A stretch of DNA of 53,610 bases, filler included, from Jimgerdemannia flammicorona (Eukaryota), in NCBI GenBank assembly GCA_003990765.1. It is 2 parts of 2 records of this genome, joined end to end, with 100 filler letters (N's around TTAATTAATTAA, not from the genome) between each part and the next. Parts side by side here need not be neighbours in the genome. Positions count along the whole stretch, not along the records: positions 1 to 26,759 come from RBNJ01000698.1; 1 more part is not named here. One strand, 5' to 3'. Below the pieces are notes generated by a model. It was given only the letters and a program-made list of their open reading frames with translations. It was not told the DNA's origin and ran no database searches. Positions 1,446-44,454 of the stretch are shown in pieces (position 1 is the first letter of the stretch; the number at the start of each line of letters is the position of its first letter). The translations under genes and the position numbers were made by a program.

Positions 1446-1771
1446 TATATTATTAAATTAAAAAAATCTTATTAAAAATTTTATTTTAAGAATTTTAATT
1501 AAAAATCTTATTAAAATTTATATAACTATTAATTATATACTATATAATTTAAAAATCTGATTTAAATATTATAATTAAATATCTATCTTCTAATTTTTAT
1601 TCTAACCCTAACCCTAAACCAATTATAATCTAACCATAACCCAAACCCTAACTATATATATCATAAAAAGAAAAATATATATATATATATAATGAAAATA
1701 AAAATCAAATATATATAATTTTTATAAATAAAATTATTTATAAAATATTATAACTTAAAAAATATTAATAT

Positions 1772-2239: not shown

Positions 2240-2280
2240 TCTTCCTTCTGAATAGATGATTTATCTCAGGAGCATCCTAT

Positions 2281-2740: not shown

Positions 2741-2744
2741 GATA

Positions 2745-7836: not shown

Positions 7837-7930
7837 TTTGTCTGGGTATTGGGGCTCAGTTTGTATAGTTGCTCAGGTAGTGGCAGTTGTTTATTATTTG
7901 TCTTGAATTACCAGCCAATGGGCACCAAGT

Positions 7931-8398
7931 TGTAATGTAGTGAATGCTTACTCTTGAAAGTAAATTGGATTTCTGTATCTTGAATACTTGATCTTCTCTG
8001 ACTCCTCAGAGTCCTTGGGATGCAGGGGTAGATGAGTTCAAAGTATATCTACCCACAGGCTTACTAGTTCCTTTGCTATCTCTTTGCTTTTGAACTATTT
8101 TGATCTGAGGTTTATTCACTCTAAGATACTGAGTTATTTATATAAGTTTTGCTAACTATAAGGTGGCTAAGTAATGGCTCATTTTGTAAGTGTTGAATCT
8201 TTTAACATCTGCTAAGATTTCGCTGATTGTGAAGATTCTAACATCTCCTAAATCTTTGCAAACATTAAAGTTTCTACACTTTGTGGAATGTGGCTGCTAT
8301 TTTTATAAGGCTAAGCTATATTGGGAATCAGATTCAGGTATTGCAATCAAATGTCTAATTTCTCTGTTTCATATTACTAATTCAGATGAGCCATCATA
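7931..8398 (-). repeat. 5' LTR of copy A1
   Basis: Direct repeat of 1772-2239; followed on the minus strand by ACT-TGGTGCCCATTGG (PBS-like). Confidence 0.95.
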
Positions 8399-8423: not shown

Positions 8424-9620
8424 TTATTATTATTATTATTATTATTATTATTTTAATAGACTTAATGTCTTGTGGATTTTTATTGGAAGAGAACCTAGAC
8501 TATATAGTCCAAAACTCTCCCCCACCACTTATCAAACACTGCCCCCCTATTAATCTAGACTAGCTATTATCCAGCAGCTCAACTATATCAGGCACAGCAG
8601 GGTCTATAGTGGCCTGCACTTCATTCTGTACACCATGCTCTCTCTATCACCAGGAGAAACCCAACCATATACCAATAACTGAAAGCATACCCAGAAACCC
8701 AACATATGTACAAGACCATGCCTGAGCCAATAGAAAAGCCCCTGCCATCCCAAAGAGAATAACAGGCAAAGAAAAAACCCTCATCAAAGTACAACATGGT
8801 GGGCAGAGCCTAGTTCTCCCAGTCGAGGTGAGTAAAGAACTTATATGTGAGGTGGGAGGAGACCCCCAATACCCCACTACTCAAGCCTGCAGGCCTTGAT
8901 CACATTGCTATATCAGCTCCCAGTTCCAGTTAAGTGCAGCCAAGATACCTGAAATGGATAGCCTCAAGCCCCCCAACCCTCTCTGATGACTGAGGCCCAA
9001 CTTGCCAAATTGCCAAAAGAAGCCAAGAGTAACACCTACTACTAACCACACCATACTAATCAAAAGGCCCCACTGAAGCAATATATACCCCAGCCCCAAC
9101 AACTGCCCCCAGCCTAGCACTCTACTGATTTACCATTATCACCCTTCCTCTTATCTATGATGGCCATCTCTCCTTCCATCCCAATAACATCCAAAAAGCA
9201 GCCACCTATATCAGAACTGTGCTCACTGGGAAGCTTGCCAAAGCCAGAGAGCCCCACCACAGATACCAAGAACCTGCAGATAATCTATACTGAGCACTTG
9301 ATGCCCAAGGTCAGCTAACTCTCTACATAACCTGAGACACACCAAGACAGCATCTTGTTGACAACAATAAAAGGAAAAAGACACCTCACCAAAATAGATG
9401 TACTCTAGATGCAGCCAAAGGTACCAGAAACTGTGAAAAAGTGGAAAAAAAACCAATCCAACACTGATAAAAGGGCAACTCATCACTATTGCCTCCCTCC
9501 CACTGCCCTGCAACAGGCACAACAAACCAACCCAAGATAAAGGGGGTAAAAATTATGGAAAATGGACTCAGAAGGTTACCTATCAAACCATTGTGACCGG
9601 TAAGGTAGCGGAGAAAGGTG
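8424..9620 (-). mobile_element. ~1.2-kb repeat with minus-strand AATAAA and (TAA)n tail; probable non-autonomous non-LTR retroelement
   Basis: (att)n tract 8424-8453 next to ...ggatttttattgg. A colinear, more degraded copy lies at ~27850-29560 with the same two boundaries. Confidence 0.6.
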
Positions 9621-9824: not shown

Positions 9825-12800
9825 TCACATGAAGTACATGACTATGATATGTTAAAGCAATTTGAGAAATAGAGAAACAGATGATGGGTATTGATCGGAT
9901 TTCATTCAAAAATTGGAGTGGACAATGAAACGACGACTTACCCTTTCGAAGGTCTGGTTTCACCTGACGATAACTGGCAATGGCTCGATTTTGCGCCTCT
10001 TGATCGGAGACCTCAGTCGAAGTATCAGCTTCCGATTCGTGAAAGTTTGTCGTATGAAAACTGTCCGAGGCAAGGTTAAGCACAAGTTCAAAAGATGTGG
10101 CGTAATCCAAACCGAATAGAATCTAATAAATACCGTGCCCTAGTTGCGATCAGATCGGCGTAATAAGCTAATTTAAAATGCAGGCACGAAATATTAGCGT
10201 GTATAAGAAGTATTAAGATTGCGAAATTATTTTAGATTACGTACCAGGTGGAACTATGGACACTGCGCGTGTGGCGCGGCCATAGAGATAGCATAGTTTA
10301 TACGTCAAATCTTGTAAGCTATCCGGGGTGAAATTGTTCTCATCGTGAAGAACATGGTAGTGACAAGGACGCGAAGTGCCTTTCAACCCTGCATGAGATT
10401 GCAAATCTGAGAAGAAGAGGAGTATTACATTCCATAGAGAACTCATAGTTAAGGATGAATGTGCAAATTGGTAGAGGCTCACAGAAATCAAACTCAAAAG
10501 GATGAGTTATCGTGGTTTCAACCACAGTTCCAGGAAGACAGTTGCCAGTCCGGTCCGCATCTTGTTTTCTCATCGGGAAAAAGCGCGCATGGTGACGTTT
10601 TTGCACAATGACGAACGTAATGGTGGGATTATAATTAGGATCAAGTGATGTGCAGGCCGCTGCGTCGTAAACAAAATTTAACCGTGAGCGACGAGGAGTA
10701 AAAGTACATCGGAAGATTAATAAGGATAATAGATCTAATACGCGAAGATGCCTACGACAAAGCAGAAAGATGGAGAAAGCGTGTGACGATTGATGACACA
10801 TACCCCGAACCGCTCTAATCTCCTCTTCCCTAACTATCTGAAATTGGCGCTCGGAGACACCATCACGATAGAACAAAATTCGGCGTGGCTTTTGGCCGCA
10901 TTGCTGATAGAAGGTTTTCAGTATTTCCACCACCATTTCCGCCAGATCGCTTATAATCTCGACGCGTCCCTCTTGGACGCGAATCGAAGCGGAATACCGA
11001 GATGCCCTTGAATCCATGGATCCACATACGGCGGCAATCGACGGCTTGTTCACGGCTCCAGGTGCTGGGTGTGTAACATCTGCTCCAAACAAAATTGTCG
11101 GTTGCTCCGCGATGAAGGGGATTTGGTCCCTATTCAAAAATGAATTCATTCCACCGAGCTTGAGATTCACCTTCAAACATACGTTTGCGCAATATTGCTT
11201 CTTGGGCTCAAATGTGTGCACAGCTTGTACGCACTGAGAAGAGACACCAATCACGGTATCAGTGACTCTCTTGATCTGGGCGTAAAGATTTACATCCGTG
11301 TCGGGCAGAACGCACATAAGGAGTTGAGGCTGTGCTTTCGCGGTTCGAGCGGCTTCAAACCAGCCTTCCTTTAGGATCTCCTCAATGTTTCCGTTATGGC
11401 TCACTTGGCGAATAGGCGGCTCTCGATTGACGACGTTCTAACAAACGGAATATGTAATACGTGGCCAATAAGTTGATGAGCAAAGAGATATAACGCGCTA
11501 TTAATGTGATAGATGTTGCGCCATGGGTAAAACATACCAGGCCTGTAGTGTGGAATATCTGGACCATTTCACGGATGAATACTTCTAACTGACGAATCGT
11601 CGGACTTCTCCTGGATCTCGGGTCACGAAAGTGGATCACCGCCCAGGACCCCAGCACAGCACCTGTGGCAACCTTGGTATTGCGCAAATTCCATGCACCA
11701 CCGTCGGGAACGACGTCTCTTGAACTCGAGTGATAGGATAATGTCGGCGTTTCAAGTACCCGGGCCTTGACAATAGCCATCTCGGTACCCACTGTGAGGC
11801 CGAAATGCTTGAGATAGTCATTCTCGCGGTAATTCAGGAGGTCTATTCCCTCCTTAATGAGATTAGCTCGCATGTCCGGAGGTTGACAGGTGAAATTGAT
11901 CATTTCCTTTGTCTGCGCCCTGTTGAGCTTCCTCAGGCAACGTTGGCCTTTGACGACGTGACATACTTCAATGGGAAGGTAATTATTTTTCTGGACAACA
12001 ACGCACGGCAACATCGGAAAGTTGAGACGCCTGTTGTACGTCTTTCTGAAATATGACGCGACGTCTTGCCTCACTCCAGTATCGCCAGTCTCGAAGAAAG
12101 TCTTGTCAGGGGTGGTTTTCGTGAGCTTGAAGATTTGAAATTTTCTCCTGAAATTGTCACCGCGGTGGTCCACCGTGATTCGGAGGCTTTTGATGGCTTT
12201 CTCTACCTTGCCCCATTCCTCACCGAAACCGTCACGGAGGTCATCTCGCCTATTATAATTGAGGATCTTCGCTACCATGTCTATGAGCGGAATTTCCTCA
12301 TAGAAAACCGTCGCGCTTACATCGACATTTATCATCATTTTGCCTACGGATATGAGGTAGCAATTGATCAATAAATTATTCCATACCCGGATGCATTGGT
12401 AGTGATGCCGTAACGATTCAATGCTCACCTACTGCTGGACGGGCGGATTGATGGTACCCCTGCCAGACCTCCGACCCATTAGGAAGCCAGCCCTTACGTC
12501 GGTCTGTGAAAAACGAACGGCCAACTGGGGCGTATAACATGGAGGGCTTGTGTCGAATGAGGACGTCGAGCACCATTATCGCTAGAATGTGAATGACATT
12601 GTACGGAAGACGTGGGAAAAAGAGGTGAGGAAGTCTACTTCGTAATGTCCGCGAAACTGGTTGGATATGATTGGTGTATTACCATTCAAACAATTGTCCG
12701 TCAGGCCTAGTTTAGCTTCCAAGAACTCGGGTAATTCGGCCATGATGATGTCCCCAACCTTCCTGATATTAATTTTGAATTTTTTCGGGGAAATTTCCGA

Positions 12801-13457
12801 AAGAGGAGCATCACCATCCTCAGGAAGGACAACCTGCAATGTAATCGAAAATCGAGAAGTTGAATGTATATAATATCAATACACTGTTCCTAGAACGATA
12901 ATTCGGCGTTCCATTTTACACATTTCCCCTTCTTTTCGAGGGAACTGACCCGATACACAGTTAACAATAAAGGTGTAATGTGATGGGGTCCCCGAGAAGT
13001 CGGAAGGGTGGTAAGCGTGTCGTTAAAAAACCACCAGGACGTCGTCTTCCATGCGCACAATTTGAAATCATGGCAAGAATTCCGGTACCAATTTATCCGA
13101 TGGGTGTTGTTATACCCGCTGTTACAAGGGGGATAATATACTCACATCAAATACGGCTGCATCATTCTCATCGAAAGGCAAGGCTTTTGGGGAATACGCG
13201 TTTTTGCGACCGTCATAAATAGGGCGAAATCTACCAAGGACGCGCGCGTTCAATTTTTCGTCTTCGAATTGTTGCCAGATTCGACGATTGAGGGAAGGTG
13301 GAATTTTCATTAGGGGGGTGACATCGTTTAGGATGGTGACATCGTAGTGGTAAATGTCGGCGCTGGGTAAACTTTGAACTTCGAAGAAGTTTGAGCGAAT
13401 GTTGATCTCGCGACCTAGGCAACCCAAGCCAGGGCGTTTGACGTTCTCTGTCGACAT
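9825..13457 (-). CDS. AGO: Argonaute (QDE-2/Ago1-like), 9 exons, apparently intact
   Basis: Exons approx. 13457-13146, 12833-12683, 12581-12429, 12343-11538, 11437-10804, 10659-10483, 10406-10245, then 10167-10133 + 10061-9942 and a final 17-nt exon 9841-9825 (so 10 if the last small intron calls all hold). GT-AG introns; PAZ (YLPIEVC), MID (QCV), PIWI GADVTH / EII / YRDGVSE / AYYADL; C-terminus VMYFM*. Confidence 0.95.
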
Positions 13458-14669
13458 TTTTGAAAAGTGCGGTGCTGGAAGGGCTGTGTGAAAAATCGTT
13501 CCGAACAAGTCATGTAGCACATCAACTGACCTCCTCACTACCAAAAACGCTGGAATGACGATATCGTTGGCCCCAAAATATAAGTACTTAATATTTATAG
13601 AAAACTATAATTAATATCAATTTAAAAGATACATTATATATTATAATTATTATATTTTAAATTATATTCTTTTAACTAGTGCTTCCAGACGAATCAATCA
13701 ATGAAAATCCATATTCTTTAGTAAACTACATTTATCTAAAATTTAAATTAAATTAAATACTTAATTAAATTTAATTTATATTTTTAAAATAAATTGACTA
13801 CTTTTAATTTCAATCTGTATTATAGATGAATATACTAATAAAAATTATATGTAATACATATATTTATCTTAGTAAATATTTATTTATATTTATAATTTTA
13901 ATATATTAAATTTGATAATTATTTATTATATTTATAGTATTTATATTGAAGTTACTTAGTAAACTTTATTTTATATTTTTACTTATCTTATAATCTATAA
14001 TCTATATAAATTTATATATCATTAAGTTAATTATAAAAATATTAATTTTTTTTTTATTTTTTTTTTATTTTTTATATATAAATATATATAATTATATAAC
14101 TTTATAGTTATATAGATAAATTTGAATAATATTATTATTCAGAGATATATTAAAAATATAAACTTATATGTAAAATACTATTTATATACTCTAATATCTA
14201 TTTCTATATTTAGAGATTTATTTATATACTTAAAGATTTACTTATATATTTAAGAATCTCTAATCTAAGATATGATTTTACTCATAATTATAGTTATGAT
14301 AGTATTATAGTTAGTTAACTATTCTGTCAGTTATAATTTCAATTATTATCTCTATATATAGTATAATATACTAGCTTAATAAAGACAAATTACAAAGTTA
14401 GAGAGCTGTATAGTTTGGCTTAAGCTTCTAGTTACTTTGTCAAAAATAATAAAAAGTTTAATAGTTTTAGGTATAAGAAATAGATATAAGTTCTATTAGT
14501 ATAATGTAGATAATTTTGATAAGTTTCTAATTCAACAATCTGATATAATACAGATTTTTCAAAAATAGTAAATAATGTAGATAATGTAGATTCTTTTTAA
14601 ATTAGCAGACTTTTCAAAATAGTGGACTTCTCTTGAGTAAAGCTATATCAAAGACTGTTTCATTTATAT

Positions 14670-15145
14670 TGTAACATAGTAGACGCTTACTCTTGAAAAT
14701 ATGTTGGATTTCTGTATCTTGAAAACTTGACTGTTCTGACTCTCGCAGAGTCTCTTGAAGTTGCAGGGAAGGGTGGGTGAGTTCGAAGTGTATCTGCCTG
14801 CAGGCTTACTAGTTCCTTTGCTATCTCTTTGCTTTGAACTATTTCGATCTGAGGTTTATTCACTCGAAGATACTGGGTTATTTATACAAGTTTGCTAGCT
14901 ATGAGAGGGTGGCTAAGTAATAAATGAGTCATTTGGACTTTGTCGAAACATTTGAACAATGTCTAAATGCTATACTAAATCGGGGTATCTGATTTGGATA
15001 ATGTCTAAAATTTAGACAATGTCTAAGAATTTAGATAATGTCAAAATCGAGGACTGCTAACTATAAGGCTATACTACTTTGGGAATGGGTGCGATCAAGT
15101 GTCTATTCCCTATTTCCTTCTTCCTAATTCGGCTATACCATCACA
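14670..15145 (-). repeat. 3' LTR of copy A2
   Basis: TGTAAC...TCACA; first ~250 bp match the A1 LTR; TATAAATA at 14879-14886 and AATAAA at 14855-14860 on the minus strand; PPT AGGAGGAAG adjacent. Confidence 0.9.
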
Positions 15146-15182
15146 ACTTCCTCCTAAATGGATGGTCTCGTCTCTGAGGCAT

Positions 15183-15644
15183 CTATTCAAACTCCCAGGC
15201 TTCAACCGTCTGTATGGTCTTGTACTGTGTAATTTGCTATATGACTGTTTCCCAATGATGTCTTCTCACTTTCTCAAAGTCGGTAGGGATTACTCCTCTC
15301 AGGTGGTCTATCGCTGCTTCATCTTCTCGGAATAACTTGTGGATCCTTTTGGCAATAGTGATCTGTGAGTGGGAGAGTTGACACTCGGCAATCCAGTCCT
15401 TCTTGGTCTTTGATGGATCCTGATTGAGCATCTGTCCAAGCTTGAAGTACTCTTGGAACTCTGCATGATACTGATAGGCTCTAAAGTGTGAGATCCGAGA
15501 GAGATGCATCTGTACAATACTCTGAATATCCTCATAGTATGCCTCTATGGTCAGAGGCTCAGTGGTGTGCCATTGTCTTTCGATGGCTCTTTGGGCAGCA
15601 CTAGTGATCTTGAGTGCCATCGCAGTACTTTTATTACTGGCCAT
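15183..15644 (-). pseudogene. Family A accessory ORF (~153 aa, one premature TAG at 15237), unknown function
   Basis: ORF 15237-15644 reads on through one stop to EAWEFE*, the same end as in copy A1. Its ATG overlaps the last codons of pol. Confidence 0.75.
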
Positions 15645-18600
15645 GATATTTCTTGAGTCAGTTTCGGTGAATAGTGGTGGGGATTATTGTGTCTGAGGGT
15701 TTTCATAGCCAAAAGGTAGTCCCTTTTATATCTTGCACAAGGTGAGGTCCTTCCCACTTGGGCTCTAGTTTTCGTGACTATGAAGCTTCTACCATGTTCC
15801 GATACACCAGAACCTTGTCTCCTATCTTGATAATCTCCAAGAGCTTGTGGATCTTTTCTGTATTCCTCCGTTGTAGTGTCTGCACCTTGGTTATGTAATT
15901 CTCAGCTTTCTTCCTGATTTGGTATAGTCTCCGTATTTCCATGTCCACATGTTTCCATACGGCATCTCCATTAGATGATAGGGTTCCTTGAGAACATTCT
16001 TCTCCAAACAGCATTTCTCAAGGGATAAAGTGGGTGCTTTGTGATCAGATATCCCGGAGAGCAGATAATGCTATTGGCAGATAGTGATCCCAGTTCTCAT
16101 AGTTATCACAGATCTTGGTGATAACATTCTTCAGGGTTTTGTTGGTCCTTTCTACTTGTCCATTTCCTTGGGGGTGATAGGCTGTGGTCCAAATGTACTG
16201 GATCTTGTACTTCTTGTAGAGAACCTCAAAGAGCTGGTTCACGAATTCTGTTCCTCTGTCTGTAGTTACTTGTGTTGGGGTCTTGAACCGGCAGATGATT
16301 TCCTTGTGGAAGAAATCGGCAATTGACTGTGCATTTGCTTCCTTGAGAGGTCCTGCTTCTATCCACTTCGTAAAAAGGTCTACGATGACAATGATGTATC
16401 AGTTACCAGTCAGGGTCAAGGGTAGAGGGCCGATTACATCCATTGCTATATGGGCAAATAGTACTGGTTCTATGTGTGCTGATCCTGGGGCTTGATTCCA
16501 TTGGTCTTGTTTCTGTTTCTGGCATTTGTCACATGTCTTGACGAATTGTCTGATATCTTCCTCTATCCCTGGCCACTATATTGTTCTTCTTGCCTTGTCA
16601 TATGTATTCATTCCTCCTAGGTGGCCAAGTTCATATACTGATTTCATCGCTTGCTCCTTCTTGTGTTCTGGTATGACTAGTAGTTTTCCTTTCTTCAGTG
16701 TTTCTCCATCAGTTTCGAATTGTTTCCATGTCCTGTTGATAATCGTTTATATCCATTCTTCCAGATGTTGGGGCATTTTTCGCTGTCCCAGGTATATGAT
16801 GATTCCATAGTAGAGCTTCTTATTCATGATTGATTTGTTGGTTGAAGGTAGTTCGAGGTGTCCGTGAGAGAGCATCTGCATTGGAATTTGTTCTTCCGGG
16901 GTGGTGCATGATGGTTATATCATAGGCTTATAACTTCATTATCCATCTGGCATAGATTCCCTTGGGTTGTCCAGTTGTCAGTAGCCAGGTGAGAGCTGAG
17001 TGGTCCATCTGGATGGTGAAGTATCTTCCGGCCAGATAGTAGTGGAACTTTTCCACAGCCCAGATGACTGCAAGGCATTCCAACTTGTAGGACTCATATT
17101 CTTTTTCAGCCCCTCAGGTTCCATGGCTAAGATATGCAATGACATACTCTTTTTTGTCTTCTTTTTAAGCCAGGACTGCTCCTAGTCCCTGTGCACTTGC
17201 ATCTGTCTGAAGGATAAATTCTTGGGTCCAATTGGGTCATCTGAGGATAGGTGCCTGAGTTAGTCTGACCTTGAGTTCGTCAAATGCTTTTTGTTGTCTG
17301 CCAGTCTACTGAAACTTGGTATCCTTTTTGTTGAGTTCGTAGATTGGGCCTGCGATATTGGAGAATCCTCTAATAAATCTGCAATAGTAGGAGACAAGTC
17401 CCATGAAGGCTTGGGCTTCTGTGATGGTAGTCGGCCTTGGGTATGCTGCTACCGCTTGTATTTTGAGAGGGTCTGTGTGTGTTCCATCTTGATTGATGAT
17501 ATGGCCAAGATAGGAGATCTCGATTTCTGCAAACTTGTACTTCTTAAGTTTGATATAAAGGCCATGTTGTCTTAGTCTCTCCATTATCTGTTCCTCGGCT
17601 GTCTTACTGTAGATGATTACATCATCGACATAGACCATCATCCATCTTCCCATGTCATAGCGGAAGATTTTGTTCATCATTCGCTGAAAGCTTGCTGGTG
17701 CATTGCACATTCCGAATGGTATTCGTAGGTAGATGTAGGTTCTGTCTGGGGTGATGAAGGCTGACTTTTCACTTGCCACTTCTGTGAGTCCGATTTGGTG
17801 GAATCCTGAGTATAAGTCCAAGGTGCTGTAGTACTGTGCTTCGTCTCCCAGTGTTATAAGAATGTCACTGATGAGCGGCAGTGATTGGCAATCCTTCTTG
17901 GTGACTGTATTGAGCTTTCTGTAGTCGACACAGAGCCTTGGGGCAAATTCTCCAGATTTGCTTCCTTTTTTTGGGGCTAGTACAACTGGTGAAGACCAGG
18001 GGCTGCTAGTTTCTTTGATGATACCAGCTTCTTCCATCTGCTTGATTTCTTCTCTGAGCCATTCTCGGTAGGCTGGCGGGATGGGTCTTGCCTTCTGATA
18101 AATTGGTTCAGTGTCTCCGGTATCTACCTCGTGATAGTAGTGTGGGGTCTTTCCTTTGATATCCTTGAAATCCGTGGCAAGGACATCCTCGAATTTGTGG
18201 AGTATTTTCTTGAGTTCCTCCTTGAGTGAGAATTTGTCTCCAATGATGTAACTGTGCTTGCTCATGTTTTCCTCCTTCTTATACTTAAGTTCAGTGATCT
18301 TGGTGCTGGCAAATACTCCTCTTCCTGTGGATCTGAATCCTTTCTTTCCCCTTTTCATTTCCTCCAGATTCTTGACTTCTATGATCCTTGGCTGTATGAT
18401 TGAGAAGATCAACATCTGTGCCAATCAGTTCTTCTTCTTGACTGGGAATGAAATTGTAGAATTGTGATTCCTAGCAATGAGTAGAATTTCTCCAGTATAG
18501 TCTGAATCAATGACTCCTCCTTCGATTGTGATTTTGCTTCTAGCCAGGCTGCTTCTTGTCTTGAGAATCCCGACATAATCCTTTGGGATGGTCATCTCTA

Positions 18601-19107
18601 GTCCAGTTGCAAGTAGGGTAGTTGTCTGGGGTTCGAGTACAGTTTCTTCTACTGTAGCGATGTCCATTCTGGCTGCGTTTTCTGACTTGTATTCTGGCAA
18701 GACTGCATTACGGTAGATCTTTCGAATCTTGACCTTGATTTCTTCATCATCACTGTCCTCCAGGAGGGCTGGTGGTTCATCATCTTCCTCCTTCTCTTCT
18801 TCTCTGATCCGTTTTTCGAGAGCTTTCTGGCTTCTTTTCTGGTAGATCTTCCTAGTTCCGATGGTGCACTAGTAGCAATCATTGACATGTTCCATACAGT
18901 ACATCTTGATTCCATGAGGACAGACTCCTTGTAGGGCATAGCCTTCTGCAATCTTCTTGTACCATTCTTCTTCACTCATCCATCTGACTTTCTTTTTCTT
19001 TGGGGTAGTCACCATATAAGCTTCCTCTTGCTCACTCTCTTCTTCCTCCATATCGGGCAGGACTCCTTTGTTGACATTGATGGGAATTTATATCTTCTGT
19101 CCCTGGT

Positions 19108-21171
19108 TGTAAGCACACAACCTCCAAGCCACCGAAATTACATGTCACCCTCTGAACAAGCCACTGAAATCACATGCGACCTCTGAACAAACCTGGAAAT
19201 CACCTGCTTGATCACGAAGCTGAGTTAAACCGAAGTCACAGCGCACAAAGCTGAGTCAATATGAAGTCACGGAATACAAGATCTACACAAACGGAACCTT
19301 ACCAATCAGGACCAAATGCATATATACCAAGCACCGAGATACATCAAATCAGAAAACCAAAACAAATAACAACCACAACTTCCAAATACACAAACATGAC
19401 CACCGAGATCTACAACCATATCCGTACTGACATTTGGAATGCCATTGTCAACCGAGCCACACCCCCTCTACCCCTCATGAATATCCATAGCCTGGCACTC
19501 CTCTACTTCATGGAAGCCCGATGGAATGCCCTAAACATGCTTAGCGAGGCCTACCGAATCAGACAAATCTCAAGCTACTACCAGATTGGCCGCCTCCTGG
19601 AAGACATGGTCGAACACCACCATGATACAGACATTACCCAGATGTCTCAACACCAGAAGCTCATCGCCCGCAAACATCGAGAACTCTTCTATGAGTACAA
19701 CACCTTTATTCCCCGCCTCCAAGTTACTACCAGTGAAATGGTTGCTACCCTGTCCTATGGCCAAATCGATGACATGATACAAGAAATCAACCACAAGTAC
19801 CTCGAATATGTCCAGACCACAGACAGAACCTTCCCGCACCCTGATGACCACATCCTGCAAATGCCTCAAGTTGGATATGCCATGAAGGATGTCTATGATA
19901 TAATCCACTTCGATGAAGACAAAGCAGAAGACAATGATCCCTCTGACACCAACATGACCTCTAGCCAAGGATCTCTGCCAACCCTGATCACTCCGCCAAC
20001 CTTGCCGATAAACTTACAACAGTTCATAACTGCATATGAGACTTATTGGGACAATGACCACTGGCACGAATACCAACCCGTGTTCACCCCCAATTACTTC
20101 AATTACAATGAAGAGACCAGAGAATACAACCTGTACCTTCAGACAACCCTCGAGATCGAACCAACCACTCCACTACCCAAGTACAAGTGACACGAACCAC
20201 AGCCACCAGCATACTATAACCCTGCAACTCATAGTGCCGTAATCTATAAAAGGTACACAGATAGTGAATCTGATGAAAGCGAAGACAATACACCCATCCT
20301 TCGCCCACCAACATCTTATCCAGCATACGAAACAGATGATGCTATCCTGTAGGATGGAGATGAAGTTCCAATGTATTACTACCTCAGCGAACAAGGAGAA
20401 GTAATCCACGAACCACTCCTTCTAGACGACTACTTCATCAGAGATGATGCAATCAATGGTGATATCATCGAAGACTACCCAGACAGTGTCTAAACCTATA
20501 AATAGTCTAGCAGTCATAGTATAGATAGATTAGCCTTATATGATGTGACTGTGAACTGACTCAGCAGTCAGATGATCCCTTGACATGTCAGATCACACTT
20601 ATACTACATGACTGCATTCCGACTCAGTAAGGCACTTAGTGCTACATCCATATTTAGCATAGTCCAGATAGCCCCTCACTAGTATAAATACCCCCTCCCC
20701 CAGACCTCAGAATCTCAGACTTGAACAATCTGAACACAACTTCTGAGTACTTCCCCACAATATCCCTTTACACAAATACTCCTAGTATAGCAATATCATG
20801 AATAGCAAATAAACCTATTCCATAACCCACAAACCACTCTTAAGTAAATCTGCTCCCTGTTAGGTCCTACTCCTAACCCTGTCACGAAATTTCCTAATTG
20901 GGTATTGTCTGCAGCAATACGCCAATTCAACTAAGCTGGTCTTAGTTTCTTGAACTTCCTGAAATACGGAAAATCCTGAACATCCAGAACTAGTCCAGAA
21001 AAGGACTTTGATTGAGACGTCAACCCGATCTTGAAATCAATAAGCATAGAGGACGTACTCCATACAAAATTGATCTTGACTATAAGAAAACGGTCTTCCA
21101 GAACATCCAGAATATCCAGAAAACCTTTCCAGAACTACGTAATGGTTACCCTAAAAAGTAATCCTCTTACA
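19108..21171 (+). repeat. Putative 2064-bp 5' LTR of element B
   Basis: Terminal inverted TGTAAG...CTTACA; PBS 3 nt downstream; TATAAATA at 20683-20690; AATAAA at 20808-20813. The second LTR is not in the window. Confidence 0.7.
19396..20493 (+). pseudogene. LTR-encoded accessory ORF of element B (~365 aa if two stops are read through)
   Basis: ORF 19261-20190 (ATG 19396). The frame continues through TGA 20188 and one TAG to TAA 20491-20493. N-terminal part resembles the family A accessory ORF. Confidence 0.7.
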
Positions 21172-21174
21172 ACT

Positions 21175-21186
21175 TGGTAGCAGCGG
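21175..21186 (+). promoter_or_regulatory. Primer-binding site, initiator tRNA-Met type
   Basis: TGGTAGCAGCGG directly after LTR-terminal CA; complementary to the AGCAG-type iMet acceptor stem plus ACCA. Confidence 0.75.
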
Positions 21187-21211
21187 TTTACAATCCAATT
21201 CCACTTCAAGA

Positions 21212-24200
21212 TGCTTCCTTACCCCGCTACAAACCCCTCTGCGAATTCCTACAAGTTGGTATAAAGCCCAACCTCTGAACTGGAATTTATCTGAACCATC
21301 TGACAATCTGGAGAGAATTGAACCTGACATACAAGGACAATTTGACCTCCACACCTACAACAAGTGGGACAAACTTCATTCTAAGAAAGAAGTACTCCGG
21401 TTAAACTAGCAAATAGGCAAAACCCTATTCACCGAACTCCTTGCACTACACCCAGCAAGTCAAGATGAAGAAGGTCTTATTGAAGCCTTCTTTACTCTTC
21501 TCAACAAGAGTTTTGTCAGCTCTACAAATCTGAGCGACCTAGGATAACCAGTAGCAGTCTTTCTAGCCTTAGTTCCTCACGAAGCCCAAGCCTCTGTAGC
21601 CAAGTGGCTCAACTCTACCGACTTTCACCATACCAGGACCAAGACCACCTTATACTACCGATTCCAGAACAGCAAGGCCTGCCATATCCTTAAAGAAGAA
21701 GCAAGAGAAACCCTTCATCAACTCTCTGACCCCAAACCTGAAGCAGGCCCTGCTACAGCCCTACCTGAATCTGAAACCAATACTGAACCTGAACTTGACT
21801 TTGAATTAAGTCCATCTGAAATCAGATATACAACTGACTCTGTCTACTTTGACACCGAGCAAACCCAATTACATGGGGACCAAACTGAAGAAGAGGAGGA
21901 GTATCTCACCGAATTTGATCCTGGATACACCACTGAAGGAGACACATGCTCATCAGGACAGAATACACCTATACAGCAACAAACAGCTATCTATTAAGCC
22001 CTCACTCCAGATCCACAACTACTACTCCAGTAACTTACACAGACCCAAAGAACCCCATCACACTCTGCACCAGTACCTCAAGTAGTACCAGTAACACTAC
22101 TACCAGCAGTCCAACCACCTCCAGCAATCAACATGGCGAACCAACAGATTCTGGATCTCACAGCCCAAGTAGCTATAATGGTAGCAACTATCACTACCTT
22201 AGCTGAACAGACCTGACCTACCAAAAATCTGAGCCTACCTACCTTCAATGGTACTGCACAAGAAGTCCAAAGCTTCATTAATATAGTTGACACCAACTTC
22301 GAAGCCAATCAATGGACTAATGAGTGAGTTGCTGACTACGTTCTGACAAACAATCAAGACCACACCCTGGAACAACTCTTTGCTACAACTACAGCCTATG
22401 TCCGCCGAGTTGTTACATTCTTCCGAGGACCTGCCGAAGAATAGTGGCGAACCCTTCCTGAAAAACCCCTCACATGGGATACCTGACCTACAGTAGTTGC
22501 TCAGAATGCAGCAAACAATGCCCCAGGATATGGAGTCCATCCTGCAGCCCCTGGACTCAAACAACTCATGATTGCTCAATATCGCAGCGAGACCATGATT
22601 GCCGAATCTCGAGTAAAACTCTGCAACCTCAAATTTGATGTATATGGCAAAGAAGAATTTGAAACCTTCTGTACAAAACTCGAGTCACTCCTGAACACTG
22701 TTGGCCTAGGATACATTGCCAATGACGAAGCATGAAATGGTACAAGAGCAGACTATTTATTCGATGCCCTGCCTGAATGGCTTACTAGAAAAATCCGAGA
22801 ACAAGGCTGCCCAGTTGGTTGCGATCACCAACAATGATGCCTGGCAAGAATCAAGACTATGGTCAAGCGAATTCTAACAGCTGGACCAATTCTGCCCCGA
22901 AGACAATTTAACAACAAGAAAAGAACTTGGACCAAGAAAGAAGAACCCAAGCATGAAGCATCTCAAGCTCCCTCCACATCCACCTCTTGGACACCCAGAA
23001 ATCATGAACCCACCCAGCCAAGTACCTTCAAGAAACTCACTGAAGGCGAAAGGAATGAACTTCAAAGAAGCGGAGCATGCTTCTATTGCCAAAAGACAGG
23101 ACATATGGCCAGTGCCTGCCCAAACTGAAAACCTCGAACAGCAACACGAGCAACTGTTACAACTCTGCACCACCTCAACAACCTGACCACCAAAATACTG
23201 GACTTTGTCAAGTTAAGACAAACTGCTAAGGCCCCAACCAAAGGAAGTCAAAAAGCAGCTGGATATGACCTGTATGCAGCCAAAGAAGCTACAGTTTCCA
23301 ACCGAGAAGTCAAACAAGTCTATACAGGAATCAGTATCCAAATCCCTGAAGAACATGTTGGAAGAATATGCTGTCACAGCAGCCTAGCACTGAAAGGACT
23401 CTCAGTAGAAGGAGGAGTCATTAACGAGGATTACACAGGCGAAATCATTATCCTCATTCGAAACCACAGTTGGACACCCTTCAAGATCCCTATTGGCTTC
23501 TGTATTGCCCAGATCCTATTCGAAAAGATCGAGTCAACCCTGACAGTCAAGGAAGTCCCTGAACTACTGCCCACCATCCGAGGATCCAAAGGATTTGGCT
23601 CATCAAACAAGGCCACAGTCCAACCTACCATGAGCAAAGAAGAACAATTCTACAAGAAGATCGAAGATGGATATGTACTAAGTGGCCGATGCCCTCATGG
23701 TATTGGAATGTACTCTTCCCGAATGATCGATGACTGCTTCTCTTGTATCAACAAACTGGCTCAAAGAAGAACCAACAGAAGGAAAGCTCCTATAACTGAA
23801 ATCACCAGTATTGGATCAGACAAACTGCTCACCCTTAAGGCTTTTGTCAATGGAGCACCTGTCAAGATTATGATAGACAGTGGTGCCTCAGGCAACTTCA
23901 TCAATGAAGAGACAGCCAACAGACTCAAGGTCTTCACCTCTCCAGTACAGCAAACTCAAGCAGTTGCTACAGCTGATGGAACCTCACATATTATTAGCAA
24001 GAAGTCCGCAATCTACCCTTCCAAATTGGCGACTACCGAGTACATGTTACCCTCCAAATCGTACCACTTCCTGACAATGAAATCATCCTTGGAACCCCAT
24101 GGTTAAAACAAGAGAACCCCATGATTGATTGTGTAAACCATTCTCTGACCATCAAGAAAGGATGCCATAACTTCAAACTACAAGGCGAAAAGGACCCACT

Positions 24201-26759
24201 CAACTCTAGTGACCCTGGACCAAAGATCACCCACATCAATAAGCTACAACTCAAGAAATTGGCCAAGAAATGCCCTCTCTTCGCCATCTCCATCTGACCA
24301 TCCAAAGGAGAACCCGAGAACTCTGAAGAAGATTTTTCCAAGACTGACAGCCGTGTCAGACCACTACTCCAGAAATTCCGAGACATATTCCCAAAGAAGC
24401 TCCCAAAAGGCCTACCTCCCAAATGAGCAGTAGACCATGCCATCAAGACTATCCCAGATGCCAAACCAGCCTTCAAGTCAATCTACCACATATCTCCGAG
24501 AGAAATTGATACACTCAAGAAGGAAATCGACGAACTCCTAGAATAAGAATTCATCAGACCCAGCGTATCACCCTATAGTGCACCAGTCCTCTTTGTTGTC
24601 AAGAAAGGAGGAGACCTGCGAATGTGCATTGACTACCGCGATCTCAATGAGCAGACCATCAAGAACTATTGCCCACTACCAAGGATTGATGAAATATTCG
24701 ATAGACTCACCAACCCACAATTCATGAGCTCCTTTGACCTGCGAAATGGTTACTGGCAAATTGCTATGAAAGAAGAAGACATCTACAAGACAGCCTTCCG
24801 AACTCGCTATGGACACTTTGAGTTCCTGGTTATGCCCTTTGGCTTAACTAATGCTCCAGCAACCTTCCAGATACTGATGAATACCATCCTGCATCCATAC
24901 CTGGACAAATTCATTGTTGTCTACATTGACGACATCCTAGTCTTCAGCAAAACCCTGGAGGAACATCTTGAATACCTTGAACTAGTACTACTGAAACTCC
25001 GAGAAAACAGACTCTTTGCAAAACTCAGCAAGTGTGAATTTCTTCTGAAAGAAATTCAATTCCTTGGACACATTGTCACTCCGAATGGAATCAAAGTGGA
25101 CCCCAGCAAAATCTCTGCAATCAAAGATTGGCCCACACCTAAGAAGCTTAAAGACCTCCAGTCATTCCTGAGATTAGCAAACTATTATAGGTGATTCATT
25201 GCCAACTTTGCTAAAATCACCACTGCCCTCACCCAAATGACCAAGCACAACAAGAAACAAGAACAACCTTGGACCATAAGAAAAGAGAAAGACTTCAACA
25301 ATCTTGTAAATTGGGGACCTGAACAAGATACTGCCTTTCAAGTGCTGAAAGATGCCCTGATAACCACACCAGTACTTCAAGTGGCAAATTCTGCCCTACC
25401 ATATGAAGTTACTACTGATGCCTCTGACCTAGCTCTTGGAGCAGTGCTCATGCAAGAAGGACACCCTGTGGCCTATCACTCCCACAAGTTCAATGATGCT
25501 GAAATCAACTACGCAATTCATGAGAAGGAAATGCTAGCCATCGTGGACACTCTGATCAAATGGTGACCATATCTAGAAGGAGCACACTTCACTATATTAA
25601 TAGACCACAAGTCACTAGTCAACATCAAGACCCAGGCTACCCTTTCTCGAAAGCAAGCTAGATGGATGAAAGTCCTCACCAACTTTGACTATGAAATTCA
25701 GTACCACCCTGGCAAGGAAAATATTATTACTGATGCAATCTCCAGACCACCAATCGAAGAGGTTATCCAAACTCTGACCTTGGTTACCGACACTATCATG
25801 GAACAAATCATCGCAGCATATGTTGATGATAAAGAAGCTCAAGCACTCCGAGAAATCCTGAACAATGATGATGCCAACAAGTATACCTGGTACAATCAAT
25901 ACCAACTCAAGGACAATGCTATCTACTACAAGGACAGACTGTATGTCCCAAACAACCGAGACCTCTGAAGGACTATCCTATTCAAATGTCATGATGCCCC
26001 TACAGCTGGGCATTTAGGATTTGACAAATGCTACAAAGTTATCTCCTGAAACTTCTATTGGCCCCGCATGGCAGATCAGCTCAAAACCTATATTACTTCC
26101 TATGATGCCTGCCAACGAAACAAGTCCTCAACACTAGCAAAACCTGGCTTACTTCACCCTATCCCAGTACCATCTGCAAATTGGGAACAAATCTCTATGG
26201 ACTTCATTATACAACTACCCCAAACCAAGAATGGGAAAGATGCAATTGTTGTCTTTGTGGACTACCTCAGCAAACAAACCCACTTTGTGCCTACTACCAC
26301 TACTGCAACAACACCAGACATAGCCATACTCTTGTTTGACAACATCTTCCACTATCATGGTATTCCTAAGATCATTGTTAGTGACTGAGATCCGAAATTC
26401 ACCAGCCACTTTTGGAAAGCCCTCCATGTATACCTTGGAACAAAACTTGCACTATCCACAGCCTTTCACTCTGAAACCGATGGCCAAACCAAAAGAATGA
26501 ACTGAACTCTGGAACAAATGCTAAGGAACTATGTCTCCTACAGACAAGATGATTGGCATGAACACCTCACAGCAGTCGAGTTTGCCTATAACAACAGCAA
26601 GCAAGCCTCTCTTGGAATGACCCCATTCTTCGCCAACACTGGACAAAATCCAAACACCTCTTTGACACTTATCTGAACCACTGAAGAACCCTCCACAGTC
26701 GAAGCTGTTGAAGAATTCCTACTCCGAATGCGCAATCTAAGCCAGATCGCAATTGAGAA
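21212..26759 (+). pseudogene. gag-pol of element B (gag-NC-dUTPase-Zn motif-PR-RT-RNaseH-IN) with nonsense mutations and a frameshift near 24000
   Basis: One reading frame from ~21212 through the protease, interrupted by TGA/TAA/TAG; RT ORF 24622-25194; RNase H ~25390-25750; integrase HHCC and core from ~25950. Confidence 0.9.
23200..23606 (+). pseudogene. dUTPase domain of element B, between NC zinc knuckle and protease
   Basis: Manual translation: APTKGSQKAAGYDL...SSLA...GGVINEDYTGE...IAQ...RGSKGFGSS, in frame with gag and protease. Confidence 0.9.
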
Positions 26760-26859
26760 NNNNNNNNNNNNNNNNNNNNNNNNNNNNNNNNNNNNNNNNN
26801 NNNTTAATTAATTAANNNNNNNNNNNNNNNNNNNNNNNNNNNNNNNNNNNNNNNNNNNN
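26760..26859. other. Artificial contig-joining linker
   Basis: 100-bp N block with central TTAATTAATTAA (stops in all six frames); flanking contigs are 26759 and 26751 bp. Confidence 0.95.
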
Positions 26860-27000
26860 TTGTTGGATTGCATTATCGCCATCACACATGTATTTCGCAT
26901 CACGCAAAATCGCCATACCACCACCACCACCACCACCACCACTTTTTTTTTATATATTCCCTTTACTCGAGACATATTGTAATGGTTGCATGAGCGAATG

Positions 27001-27270
27001 TTAGCCCTTTTCTGTTGTGTTACGAGTATTTAATAGAATCAATATTCGGATATTATTCATGAGAGGTTGTCGAGCAAGTTCTGCATTGCCATGAAAACGA
27101 TTTCCAACAGCGACAAGGACAAAGCTGAAGAGGAGATCGAGGTTGATGTGGATCCCAACGTCAGCACTCGCGGAGGACGAGAACATTGCGACGAGTCTGA
27201 ATGCCAGGCCTAACGCCAAGTATCCTGCTGACGACAGCTCGTCTGAAATTTGGGTATTACCCTCGAACAT
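27001..27270 (-). CDS. Possible small hypothetical protein (89 aa)
   Basis: ATG in cagccATG context within CpG-normal sequence; no recognisable motif. Confidence 0.2.
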   Translation of the reverse strand: MFEGNTQISDELSSAGYLALGLAFRLVAMFSSSASADVGIHINLDLLFSFVLVAVGNRFHGNAELARQPLMNNIRILILLNTRNTTEKG

Positions 27271-27445
27271 GGCTGTTGCTGAGGTTGTTCGTGGTCTCCG
27301 AGAGCTTGGTGAATTGAAATTGCTTTTGACCTTTTTTGATTGTGCTGTTCTTTGATATAATTGGCTTTATACATATGTAGATTGCCTCATGGGATTGGTT
27401 GTGTTAGGGATACTATTAGATAGCTTAACTGGATTCAGTAGGGTG

Positions 27446-27658
27446 TAGTGCTTACAAATTAATTTGAATTGAATTGAATTGAGGATTTTTATTCAAATTG
27501 AGGTTTGATTTATATATAAGACAAATCCAATAAGTTTAAAATGTTAAGTAGTTGAATTTTAAATTAAATTAAATTCAAATCAAATTAGATCTCAATTTGA
27601 TTTAAACTATTTTAAATTTAACTTAAATCTAATTCAATTTTATTTATTATAAATACTA
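27446..27658. mobile_element. Degenerate hAT-like MITE, same type as 1081-1281
   Basis: Ends tagtgcttaca...tataaatacta; aattg-rich interior; flanking 8-mers gtagggtg / ataaagta differ only by G>A. Confidence 0.6.
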
Positions 27659-27849
27659 ATAAAGTAGTTAAAGATATTTATAAGTAAATAATAAAATTAA
27701 TATTTATTATTAATAATTTTTTTATAAAATCTATATATACTTTGTTACTATATTTTAAATATTAATATTAGATATATAATATTATTACATAATATAGATA
27801 TTATTATTAATTATTACTAAATACTAATATTACCTTGTTCTTTAGTATA

Positions 27850-27854
27850 TATTA

Positions 27855-27885
<31 letters not shown>

Positions 27886-29560
27886 TTATATAAACTCTAT
27901 ATTTTATGGATTTTTATTAAAAGAGAATCTAGACTAGTACTCAGAATGAATTAAATTGAATCAAATTTACCTCTAATTTGATTCAATTCAAAATATTCAA
28001 ATCAAATTAAGAGTTAATTCAATTCAATTCAATTCAAATCAAGGCTCAATTCAATTCAATTTAAATTAAATTGAGGTCTAATTTAATTTGAAGTCTAATT
28101 CAAACCTAATTTTTCAAAATTCAATAACTTGACTAAAAATATCCAAATTTAATAAATTTAATGAATTTTAACTTGTTTAATATATCTTATAATAGAGAAT
28201 CTAGTATAATAAAGAATATTAAATTTGGGTATATTTCTATTGAGTTATTATATTTTGAATTTAGAATAAATATTTCAAATTGAATTAGATCTTAATTTAA
28301 TTTGATTAAATCAAATCAGATCTCAATTTGATTTGAATTTAATTTAAATTCAAAAATTTCCAATTTAATTTAATTTGAATAATCCTCAATTTAATCCAAT
28401 TTGAATTAATTTAATTTATTTAAGAGTACTAATTTAGACTATATAGACTAAAACTCTCCTCTACTCTACTCTAAATACTATATAGACTTACTATTGTCCA
28501 GTAACTCTATCATGCCAAATATAGTAGGATAAATAGCCTATATCTCATTCTATATACCATACTCTCTCTATTATTAAAGAGAAAATAACCATATATCAAT
28601 AACTGAAAATATATATCTAAAACTCTAATATATATATATATAAGACTATATATATTAGAACTAGATAGCAAAGTCTCACTACTTCAAATAGAGTAACAGA
28701 TAAAAAAAAAACTCTCCAAAAGATATAAAATAGTGGGTAGAAGCTAGTTCTCTCTAATAAAATGAATAAAGAACTTATATATAAGATAGAAAGAGACCTA
28801 CAATACTCTACTACTTAAGTTTACAGACCTTAATTATATTATTATATCAGCTCTTAGTTCTAGTTAAGTACAGTCTAAATATCTAATTTAGATAGTCTTA
28901 GATCTCTTAATAATCTCAAATAACTAGAGCCTAATCTCATATATTATTAAGAGCTACTAAGAGTGATACTTATTATCTAACTACTTTATACTAATTAGAA
29001 GATCTCACTAATATAATATCTATATTAGTCTTAATAATTGTTATTAGTCTGATATTTAACTGATTTACTATAATTATCTACCTATTTATCTGTAATAGTT
29101 ATCTTTTCTTCTATTCTGATATTATCTAAAAAGTAGTTATCTATATTAGAACCATACTTACTAAGAAGCTTATCAAAACTCAGAGGATCTATTACAGATA
29201 CTGAGAATCTATCAAAATCTTTACTGGTACTTAATATCTCAAGGTTAGCTAACTTTCTATTAGCCTAAAATATATTACAATTATATCTTATTGATAATAG
29301 TAAAAAAAAGAAGATATTATACCAAAATAGATATATATACTTCAGATATAGCCAGAGGTACCAAAAACTGTAAAAAAAGTAGAGAAAACACTAATTCAAT
29401 ACTAATAAAGAGATGACTTATTACTATTACCTTTCTTCTATCATTCTATAATAGATATAGCAAATTAACCTAAGGTAAAGAAAGGTAAAAGTTATAGAAA
29501 GAGAACTCAGAAGGTTATTTATCAAAACCTTATAATTAATATAGTAGTAGAGAAAGAAGC
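27850..29560 (-). mobile_element. AT-eroded second copy of the 8424-9620 (TAA)n-tailed element, interrupted by a MITE
   Basis: Shared blocks such as agactatatag..aaaactctcc, aaagaacttatat, aggtacca..aactgt, ctcagaaggtta; (att)n at 27855-27885. Confidence 0.7.
27935..28431. mobile_element. hAT-like MITE (~500 bp)
   Basis: TIRs tagtactc...gagtacta; 8-bp TSD atctagac / atttagac; the empty site acctagac is seen at 8493-8500. Confidence 0.8.
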
Positions 29561-30219
29561 CATATATATATATTATATTATTATTATTATTAACTGAGTT
29601 AGTACTTTTATTATTAATAATATTATCTATACTACTAATAGTACTTATATATATATACTATTAATATTATTATTACTTTTATTACATAAAAAGAGTTTTA
29701 TTAATTAGTTATAGATATCAGATTAATAAAACCACTTATAGATCTTATAAAATTAGTACTGATTACTTATATAAATATTGTCTATATAAATATTACTTAA
29801 ATATTATTATATAGTATATATATATATTAGTTTAGTTACTATAATAAGTATCTTAATAATTATTTCTTTTATAATATCTATATTTTCCATAATTATCTTC
29901 AAACTTAGTCTAACTATACCTTTGATCTTATTAGTATTTCTTATCTTATCTGTAGAAGTTATAAAAGATTTTTTTATTATTATTACTATTATCTCCATTA
30001 AATATAAATATTTATATATATTAATCTCATTAATCTTATTTCTATATTGACTTCATTGACCTCATTTGTCTCATTGAATTTATTAGCCTTATTGGTCTTT
30101 TCTATAATTGTCTCTATCATTTGAAAGAGGTTTATTATTATAATTACCTTTATCATCAGAGAGGACTTTGTTATCATAATTGCCTCTACTATCTAGACAG
30201 ATATAATTATCTATTATCT

Positions 30220-30946: not shown

Positions 30947-31419
30947 AATTATCTATTATCTGAGAGAACTTCTTTATTGCTATCTTAGCAGACTTCTTCA
31001 CTACCTAGGCTAGTAATGACCATCTTTTCTAGCCACTATCAGGGCTCATAATCTTTATTGTAGAATTTATAAGACTGAATAGAAAAAGTAATTTTATTGA
31101 AATTACATAAGTTGAATATTTTACACATCACTAATGAATGATATAGAACTGATGTAAATGGTATAAAATCACATACTGATATATCAAATTGTCATCTCAA
31201 CAAAAAATATTTAAATTTATCTATATTAAAGCTTAGCCAGTTAGATAATTTATAACATTTATACTTTCAAATAAGAAACATATCCACTTCACATCTTCCA
31301 GTTATATAGGATGGCTATCATTTCACTGGCATTTCTGTCATCTGAGGATGAGCGAACACATATAGATCGTGAGCTTGATTCCATTACACAGCTGAACACA
31401 GTATTTCACATGGTTCTGA

Positions 31420-41023: not shown

Positions 41024-41090
<67 letters not shown>

Positions 41091-44376: not shown

Positions 44377-44454
<78 letters not shown>

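Follow-up and report, generated by a model that had tools for sequence, protein, structure and literature searches.

At positions 19108-26760 of a 53,610-nucleotide stretch of the Jimgerdemannia flammicorona genome (assembly GCA_003990765.1; the whole stretch is referred to here as the window), a Ty3/Gypsy retrotransposon lies on the plus strand, inserted into an older element that we call A2. Its 5' long terminal repeat (LTR; 19108-21171, plus strand) is 2064 bp long, starts with TGTAAG and ends with CTTACA, as judged from the point at which A2 breaks off and from the loose ends of contigs of other sequencing runs. Inside this repeat lies an open reading frame (ORF) of 365 codons plus a TAA stop (19396-20493, plus strand; TAA at 20491-20493), which in this copy is broken by a TGA at 20188 and a TAG at 20350. 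We consider in turn the limits of the repeat, whether the frame is coding, and where the gene stands relative to the start of the genomic RNA.

Limits of the long terminal repeat

The left limit of the LTR can be read from the element that received it. Element A, a Gypsy element with 465-bp LTRs and with a deoxyuridine triphosphatase (dUTPase) adjoining reverse transcriptase (RT), is present twice on the minus strand of the window. The LTRs of copy A1 (1771-8394) are 91% alike, and copy A2 (14669-19107) is the host of the insertion. The two copies are 87% alike across 3.3 kb. In their alignment, A2 is homologous up to 19107, and the likeness is gone from 19108. Logan contigs from four public runs (two soil metagenomes, 'organism A' and 'organism B'), named X1, X2, X3 and X18 here, were aligned on 18900-21600 at a likeness of at least 85%, with 3874, 444, 84 and 441 contig records per run. 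The results given below draw on the best-supported 24 of 124 rows of contig loose ends, on 40 of 442 differences and on a table of three joints. Contigs of uninterrupted element A, with loose ends at 19107 in X1 and at 19103 in X2, continue as A1 does. Together with the A1/A2 alignment, these contigs mark the final A2 bases ahead of the insertion, CTGGT (19103-19107), as a candidate target-site duplication (TSD).

The terminal motifs, TGTAAG at 19108-19113 and CTTACA at 21166-21171, form a 6-nt inverted repeat, which becomes 8 nt long (GTTGTAAG and CTTACAAC) when the dinucleotides just outside TG...CA are included. After a 3-nt spacer, the LTR is followed by a sequence resembling a primer-binding site (PBS), TGGTAGCAGCGG (21175-21186, plus strand), and this 12-mer has its sole exact match in the window at that position. 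We take the PBS to be that of the initiator tRNA, whose A1:U72 end presumably gives ...UACCA. ARAGORN found no tRNA gene anywhere in the window, leaving the PBS without a matched host tRNA, and an Rfam scan of 18500-26760 returned no match.

Both limits recur in the other runs. In three X1 and four X2 contigs, an identical foreign sequence ending in the purine run AAGAAGGGGAGA stands directly before 19106. This tract would be a polypurine tract (PPT) or similar, as expected at the junction between the internal region and a 3' LTR. The GT between the purine tract and TG mirrors the AC between CA and the PBS and, by analogy with retroviruses, these may be the dinucleotides that integrase would remove; the same GT also forms the final two A2 bases at the insertion site. 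Ahead of 19108, two contigs of X3 carry unlike flanks, and one X3 contig leaves the LTR exactly after 21171 into a 108-nt flank without a PBS. Such flanks are to be expected of other insertions, of 3' LTRs or of solo LTRs. Among the 24 of 124 loose-end rows with the best support, none with at least three contigs falls between 19157 and 21171, which bears on the possibility of a shorter LTR because such an LTR would have to start there.

An artificial contig join at 26761-26859, consisting of an N run, TTAATTAATTAA and another N run that together form a six-frame-stop linker, truncates the element, so that the 3' LTR, PPT and TSD of this copy lie beyond the assembled part. Because the join is artificial, its two flanks need not be genomic neighbours. 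Comparison of the window with itself found no second copy of the LTR and nothing past the linker that resembles the element, and the window has just a single chance match to the purine-tract motif, with one mismatch, inside an Argonaute gene. We accept an LTR of 2064 bp because the A2 break, the PBS and the terminal TG...CA with its inverted repeat are joined by ends that recur in other runs. This agrees with the sequence-only reading of this stretch, which had set the LTR between TGTAAG at the exact A2 break and CTTACA 2064 bp on, directly ahead of an initiator-type PBS; outside both limits, contigs of the other runs carry the purine tract or unlike flanks.

The gene and the decay of its element

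Read from stop to stop, the frame is open over 19255-20190, which amounts to 311 codons, or 309 counted from ATG 19261. From ATG 19396 it extends over 365 codons when the two in-frame stops are read through. Within the gene, these two are the only internal stops of its frame; the remaining five frames have 13, 28, 6, 23 and 23. When the bases were shuffled, the mean was 16.4 stops, and not one of 20,000 shuffled versions had two or fewer.

Protein searches covered 5.8 billion clusters (word-indexed, at near, shorter and longer lengths), and a profile search covered 1.84 billion representatives. The single match among 72 candidates of similar length was P0001 (247 aa, from a 998-nt contig). It is 65% identical to the gene product over residues 115-365, with only two 2-residue indels and the same terminal residue, and it is open at both stop sites of the window copy, where it has Q and W. 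One match among 20 shorter candidates, P0003 (128 aa, from a 1180-nt contig, with the source label 'hypothetical protein'), is 91% identical over residues 1-128 and begins at the same methionine. The profile search returned P0001 only, with a profile made up of 247 C-terminal positions and the N-terminal 114 residues outside it. In the search for longer proteins, none of 556 candidates passed and no fused form was seen, which is weak evidence. No cellular homologue of the LTR protein appeared in the cluster and profile searches, only these two element copies, and comparison with a protein atlas stayed below a usable level of recognition, its matches being unrelated. At the nucleotide level, searches of metagenome, viral and genome contigs for the locus, by ORF alignment or with P0003, yielded no confirmed locus, and RT used as a query in viral contigs yielded none either.

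Differences between copies bear a coding signature. Fourteen of the variant sites lie in the gene (from the 40 of 442 differences listed); ten are synonymous third-position sites, four are first-position sites and none is at a second position. The third-position bias has a binomial p of 0.004 against one third, and of 0.0035 against the 0.33 that transitions at random would give. The frequency of G by codon position is 0.27/0.10/0.13 in the gene and 0.26/0.11/0.14 in pol; in the remaining LTR it is flat (0.14/0.15/0.13). The strand skew of the element (GC about -0.3, AT about +0.2) is present in the gene and is lacking in genic parts of the window. Because the gene has this skew, long residence in the retroelement is favoured over recent capture of a host gene. 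Taken at the sequence level, the 365-codon frame is a genuine gene, though broken here, that is conserved and common to other copies. The sequence-only reading had described the frame by the same two lengths, had placed it upstream of a TATA box and had made its conservation between copies one of the points on which the claim would turn. The two lengths were recovered, and P0001, P0003, the synonymous bias and the codon-position composition speak for conservation.

The sequence and the secondary structure of the predicted model suggest that the N-terminal half of the LTR protein is helical. The other half, towards the C-terminus, is acidic with many Tyr and Pro residues, and contains twice a motif of roughly 27 residues at 41% identity, a weak match (E 0.61). 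Sag, the LTR-encoded product of mouse mammary tumour virus (MMTV), is a type II membrane protein. The LTR protein is unlike such a protein because no long hydrophobic segment is visible in it.

Beyond the PBS, the plus strand carries a decayed gag region (21190-23128), whose main frame is interrupted by about 11-12 stops and which includes a CCHC zinc knuckle (zf-CCHC; about 23075-23125; Pfam E 9.9e-06). A dUTPase domain (23225-23605, plus strand; PF00692, E 2.3e-33) follows in frame with both the zinc knuckle and the protease. The aspartic protease (PR; 23807-24162, plus strand) has a frameshift near 24000-24100, with positions 15-85 of the RVP_2 profile in one frame and 83-133 in another. 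Next on the same strand come RT (24547-25194; PF00078, E 1.3e-36), RNase H (25195-25700; PF17919 and PF17917, E 9.4e-28), which has an in-frame TGA at 25564, and the zinc-binding and core domains of integrase (IN; 26050-26760; PF17921 and PF00665), which ends at the contig end. The C-terminus of IN, the site of the chromodomain in chromoviruses, lies past that end. The Pfam order along 23807-26760 is PR-RT-RNase H-IN. With the TG...CA ends and the PBS, this order secures the Ty3/Gypsy identity assigned earlier, and the domains do stand in the order nucleocapsid (NC)-dUTPase-PR that had been reported. A further TGA, at 23126-23128, is in frame with both the zinc knuckle and the dUTPase and sits right between them. 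Either gag may originally have ended here, with pol expressed by read-through, or the codon may be another CGA-to-TGA mutation.

Nine of the ten in-frame stops of pol are TGA, at sites where, from a reading of the motifs, we presume that RT and IN relatives usually have arginine. The observed/expected ratio of CpG is 0.33-0.57 in the element and 0.09-0.57 across transposons, compared with 1.07 in genic parts. From its gag stops, its protease frameshift and its ten pol stops, the copy is judged to be dead. It would have been disabled by transitions, mainly CpG to TpG (CGA to TGA), at a similar rate in the LTR gene and in gag-pol, and the TGA and TAG of the gene fit the same transition decay as the stops of pol. 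Stop density in the gene (2 in 365 codons) is no higher than in pol (10 in about 920). Because it does not exceed that of pol, the gene was probably intact when this copy inserted.

Proposed transcription units and competing placements of the gene

Putative regulatory elements lie on both sides of the gene. At its 5' end, the LTR contains a 32-nt tandem repeat of 2.7 copies (19125-19207, plus strand), which may be enhancer-like, and two tandem 31-nt modules (19213-19274, plus strand) with the motifs TGAGTTA and TGAGTCA, which we take to be AP-1/Gcn4-type sites. CCAAT (19302-19306) and ATATATA (19320-19326) make up a predicted promoter of the LTR gene (19302-19328, plus strand), and ATG 19396, with A at -3, sits 70 nt downstream of these motifs. 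Downstream of the gene, a TATA box, TATAAATAG (20497-20505, plus strand), can be read from the sequence. It is followed by an inverted copy of the 31-nt module (20535-20565, plus strand; 71% complementary to 19250-19280), upstream of a second TATA box, TATAAATA (20683-20690, plus strand), the putative core promoter of the genomic RNA. The gene lies upstream of both TATA boxes, which is where it had been placed at first. The border between the unique 3' region (U3) and the repeated region (R) of the LTR would fall at about 20715-20725.

On balance, we think it probable that this is a dead, 5'-complete Ty3/Gypsy copy whose LTR reaches about 2.06 kb owing to a 365-codon gene, and that the LTR is composed of two units with the gene in U3. 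The two transcription units would stand in tandem within the LTR. In the upstream unit, the repeats at 19125-19274, CCAAT and ATATATA would drive a monocistronic mRNA of the gene, which would stop at the poly(A) site of the LTR itself. In the downstream unit, the inverted module at 20535-20565 and TATAAATA would start the genomic RNA near 20720; if the genomic RNA starts there, the gene therefore lies in U3. Long-range splicing in the manner of MMTV sag seems unlikely in a fungus with short introns. In such an arrangement, every LTR (5', 3' or solo) would be complete in itself as an expression cassette, and the gene would be doubled by every reverse-transcription cycle.

A more far-reaching proposal is one that we can imagine and rather doubt, namely a 'complex' fungal retrotransposon, independent of vertebrate retroviruses, in which each LTR is an autonomous cassette for an acidic trans-regulator of 365 residues. 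Such a regulator would either activate the LTR or block host silencing. On this proposal, its gene possibly came into U3 when plus-strand priming shifted upstream and drew a former 3' ORF into the LTR. Because of the acidic tail and the LTR setting of the protein, a role as a trans-acting regulator of the element family, either a transactivator or an anti-silencing factor, is the function that we favour, as a guess that is itself rather unlikely to be right.

The contigs of the other runs show the gene in its LTR context. Three of them span the passage from the upstream LTR into the gene (X2 19245-19490, X2 19288-19464 and X18 19317-19508). The passage from the gene end into the downstream LTR is spanned by X18 20439-20720 and by X3 20272-20502 together with X3 20473-20806, which overlap by 30 nt. 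An X2 contig at 20362-20519 extends 26 nt beyond the gene stop. Among the three joints listed for the four runs, none skips the gene (19260-20500).

Several points weigh against a two-unit LTR with the gene in U3. In no single molecule was the 2064-bp repeat found at both ends, the listed contigs being only 100-450 nt long, and five contigs (X1 and X2) diverge after 19157, in the tandem-repeat zone. P0001 and P0003 were ascertained as open frames, so their intactness was partly selected for. The LTR protein has no Pfam match at E<=0.01, and its AlphaFold2 model, with a mean predicted local distance difference test score (pLDDT) of 34, is unusable. The contig X18 20439-20720 is preceded by 125 unlike letters, and so some copies would be without most of the gene, or rearranged. 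Summed depth in X1 over 20538-21083 is about twice that of the gene, depth not being copy number, and ORF-less variants of the LTR may exist. One low-depth X2 contig links 19905 via 29 purine-rich letters to the LTR start; this joint may come from a rearranged copy, or from a relative with the gene just inside the border of the 3' LTR. Another contig links 20801 to 19108. The 31-nt inverted repeat flanks the gene and could mark an old insertion. Finally, the gene's placement in U3, its expression and its function are matters that we infer.

The gene could instead lie in R. With a sole transcription start near 19350, it would be the first cistron of the genomic RNA, in the manner of an ORF0, and would be repeated at the 3' end of that RNA. 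CCAAT and ATATATA, 70-95 nt upstream of the ATG and with the tandem repeats before them, would suit such a start, and plant long-LTR elements have orphan ORFs upstream of gag-pol (Retrosat2 ORF0, in the available part of PMC3485330). Set against this are the two good TATA boxes downstream of the gene, at 20497 and 20683, with a 31-nt module copy of their own. Moreover, an R of more than 1.4 kb would be exceptional, and a 1.8-kb leader with a long ORF would impede the translation of gag. We consider a gene in R unlikely.

We regard as distinctly unlikely that the gene is a passenger, in which case a segment of 1.3 kb (about 19250-20565) would have been inserted into an ancestral LTR of ~750 bp, or taken up by it, and would be of no service to the element, and short ORF-less LTRs would be the normal form. 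The 31-nt inverted repeat (71%) does bracket this segment, and its removal would leave an LTR of 748 bp, which is a usual size. Summed contig depth is higher outside the segment (again a depth and not a copy number), and the X18 contig described above is homologous only from 20439 onward. However, no joint that skips the segment is among the three listed for the four runs, and the inverted arms have no flanking target duplication. The left arm belongs to a tandem pair, an arrangement that suits a regulatory module better than the end of a transposon. The gene has been kept at 65% identity with an intact frame and a synonymous bias; it shares the strand skew and the codon-position pattern of the element, and no cellular homologue of it was found.

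A short LTR that starts only after 20493 appears very improbable. The sequence 19108-20493 would then be internal, as the 3' ORF of a truncated upstream tandem copy, or else unrelated DNA. Accessory genes commonly lie between pol and the 3' LTR, according to the available part of PMC5408684, and in the X2 joint at 19905 gene sequence is followed, after 29 nt, by an LTR start. In contrast, the inverted repeat pairs 19108 with 21171, and A2 breaks exactly at 19108. The purine tract adjoins 19106-19108 in seven contigs and never a site after 20493, and neither a purine tract nor a TG start follows the gene stop. The last alternative, that non-coding LTR DNA rich in A and C merely happens to be open in this frame, is scarcely credible and close to refuted: a strand poor in T and G has fewer stops and no family or fold match was obtained, but none of the 20,000 shuffles had as few as two stops, two relatives align in frame, 10 of the 14 variant sites are synonymous and the composition has codon periodicity.

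No RNA data set was among the runs listed as containing the sequence. A separate observation concerns X18, a run that is only guessed to be RNA. Its summed depth is 2,600-7,800 over 20720-20992, falls to about 100 by 21174 and is 1-21 over the gene. Its contigs leave 18900-19263 and 21175-21600 uncovered, and the high-depth part starts just after TATAAATA. The stretch concerned runs from the TATA box to the LTR end, perhaps R-U5. Depth and coverage in X18 are not treated as evidence and were not used in placing the U3/R border.

Known elements and the genomic setting

In MMTV, sag lies in U3 and is made from spliced mRNAs, and dUTPase is encoded upstream of protease. The element described here is alike in that a complete protein gene stands inside the LTR, upstream of the genomic promoter proposed here, and is duplicated with the LTR, and in that the zinc knuckle, dUTPase and protease follow one another in one frame. 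It differs in its LTR protein, which has no sag homology (no Pfam family at E<=0.01, and only two element copies found), and in its RT and IN, which are of Ty3/Gypsy type in a non-vertebrate host. No env is present in the assembled part, which ends within integrase, and the gene is predicted to have its own promoter. By E-value, the dUTPase stands closer to cellular enzymes, with a best cellular eukaryotic match of 1.4e-25 versus 1.5e-14, 1.8e-12 and 4e-8 for chains that we take to be retroviral. Because of this nearness, the NC-dUTPase-PR order points to convergence with betaretroviruses and not to kinship. The MMTV-like character proposed in the sequence-only reading thus survives for the layout. 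As a statement of kinship it would go too far, with no sag family and a dUTPase nearer to the cellular type by E-value, and the likeness is one of analogy only.

Fungal Gypsy elements with a dUTPase have been described before. According to the available part of PMC2864245, they include Tmt1 of Tuber melanosporum, PosPlaTy3-3, -4 and -5 of Postia placenta and elements of Phanerochaete chrysosporium, with the dUTPase in varied positions and, in PosPlaTy3-3, at the amino end of Pol. The available parts of PMC6431247 and PMC5408684 also bear on this. The present element is like these in having its dUTPase inside gag-pol (PF00692), and the neighbouring element A is also of such a type. It differs in that no gene inside the LTR is mentioned for those elements in the available text of PMC2864245, a figure of which marks an 'add. 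ORF' in some elements at a position that is not readable.

Extra ORFs have likewise been described in other LTR retrotransposons. The rice elements Retrosat2, RIRE3 and RIRE8 have LTRs of more than 3 kb and an orphan ORF0 that is lineage-restricted and fast-evolving, with no homologue outside the family; these are plant elements, however, and their ORF0 lies upstream of the gag-pol ORF and not inside the LTR (both from the available part of PMC3485330). Boty/BcGypsy1 of Botrytis cinerea is a fungal Gypsy element with an additional gene, brtn, whose role is given as unknown, but brtn is antisense, and nothing in the available text of PMC8365987 places it inside the LTR. The Vesta, Juno and TelKA elements of bdelloid rotifers resemble the present one as LTR retrotransposons with a dUTPase and captured extra ORFs. 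In these elements, the dUTPase lies between PR and RT, many of the ORFs belong to recognisable enzyme families, and the extra ORFs are ORF3s that are separate from gag and pol, none being mentioned inside the LTR in the available part of PMC5408684. Unlike the internally placed ORF0, ORF3 and brtn, the ORF studied here lies between the LTR start at 19108 and the PBS at 21175. A search of full-text papers, with figures, supplements and subscription papers outside its scope, turned up no non-vertebrate retrotransposon whose LTR contains a complete gene; the proteins found to be encoded by LTRs were those of MMTV and other vertebrate retroviruses. A dUTPase is thus nothing new in a fungal Gypsy element, but an accessory gene within the LTR would be.

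As to the remainder of the window, an Argonaute gene lies between A1 and A2 (10340-13604, minus strand), with ArgoN, PAZ, L2, Mid and Piwi in successive ORFs. Three poly(A) runs of about 75-95 bases are found at about 1-95, at 41010-41085 and at 44377-44455. A diverged tandem-repeat array at 50200-52940, on the minus strand, encodes TPR_10/TPR_12 repeats as in fungal proteins that resemble nucleotide-binding oligomerization domain-like receptors (NLR-like proteins), and a second diverged array, at 31350-32610, matched no Pfam family. The TPR_10/TPR_12 genes, the types of transposon and the soil and root samples that contain the sequence would suit a fungal host, most likely a filamentous one living in soil. 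A pair of direct repeats of 1.1 kb (8496-9587 and 28435-29526; 67% alike), which adjoin A1 and lie within an AT-rich block, respectively, are probably remnants of another repeat family. Separate blocks with 17-27% GC (1-2000, 13000-15000, 27000-30000 and 48000-49000) have a look like that left by repeat-induced point mutation (RIP).

LTRs that contain genes are characteristic of a small number of complex retroviruses of vertebrates, and the extra ORFs of LTR retrotransposons have so far been described in the internal region. If the gene does belong to the LTR of this fungal element as we propose, it would be doubled in each replication cycle, and a gene with its own promoter would be left behind in every solo LTR, giving rise to a dispersed family of orphan genes. 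It would also be a candidate for a factor that acts in trans where transposons meet the defences of the fungal genome, of which CpG methylation and RIP-like decay appear to be visible in the window. For annotators, such a gene would be a reason against the blind masking of long LTRs.

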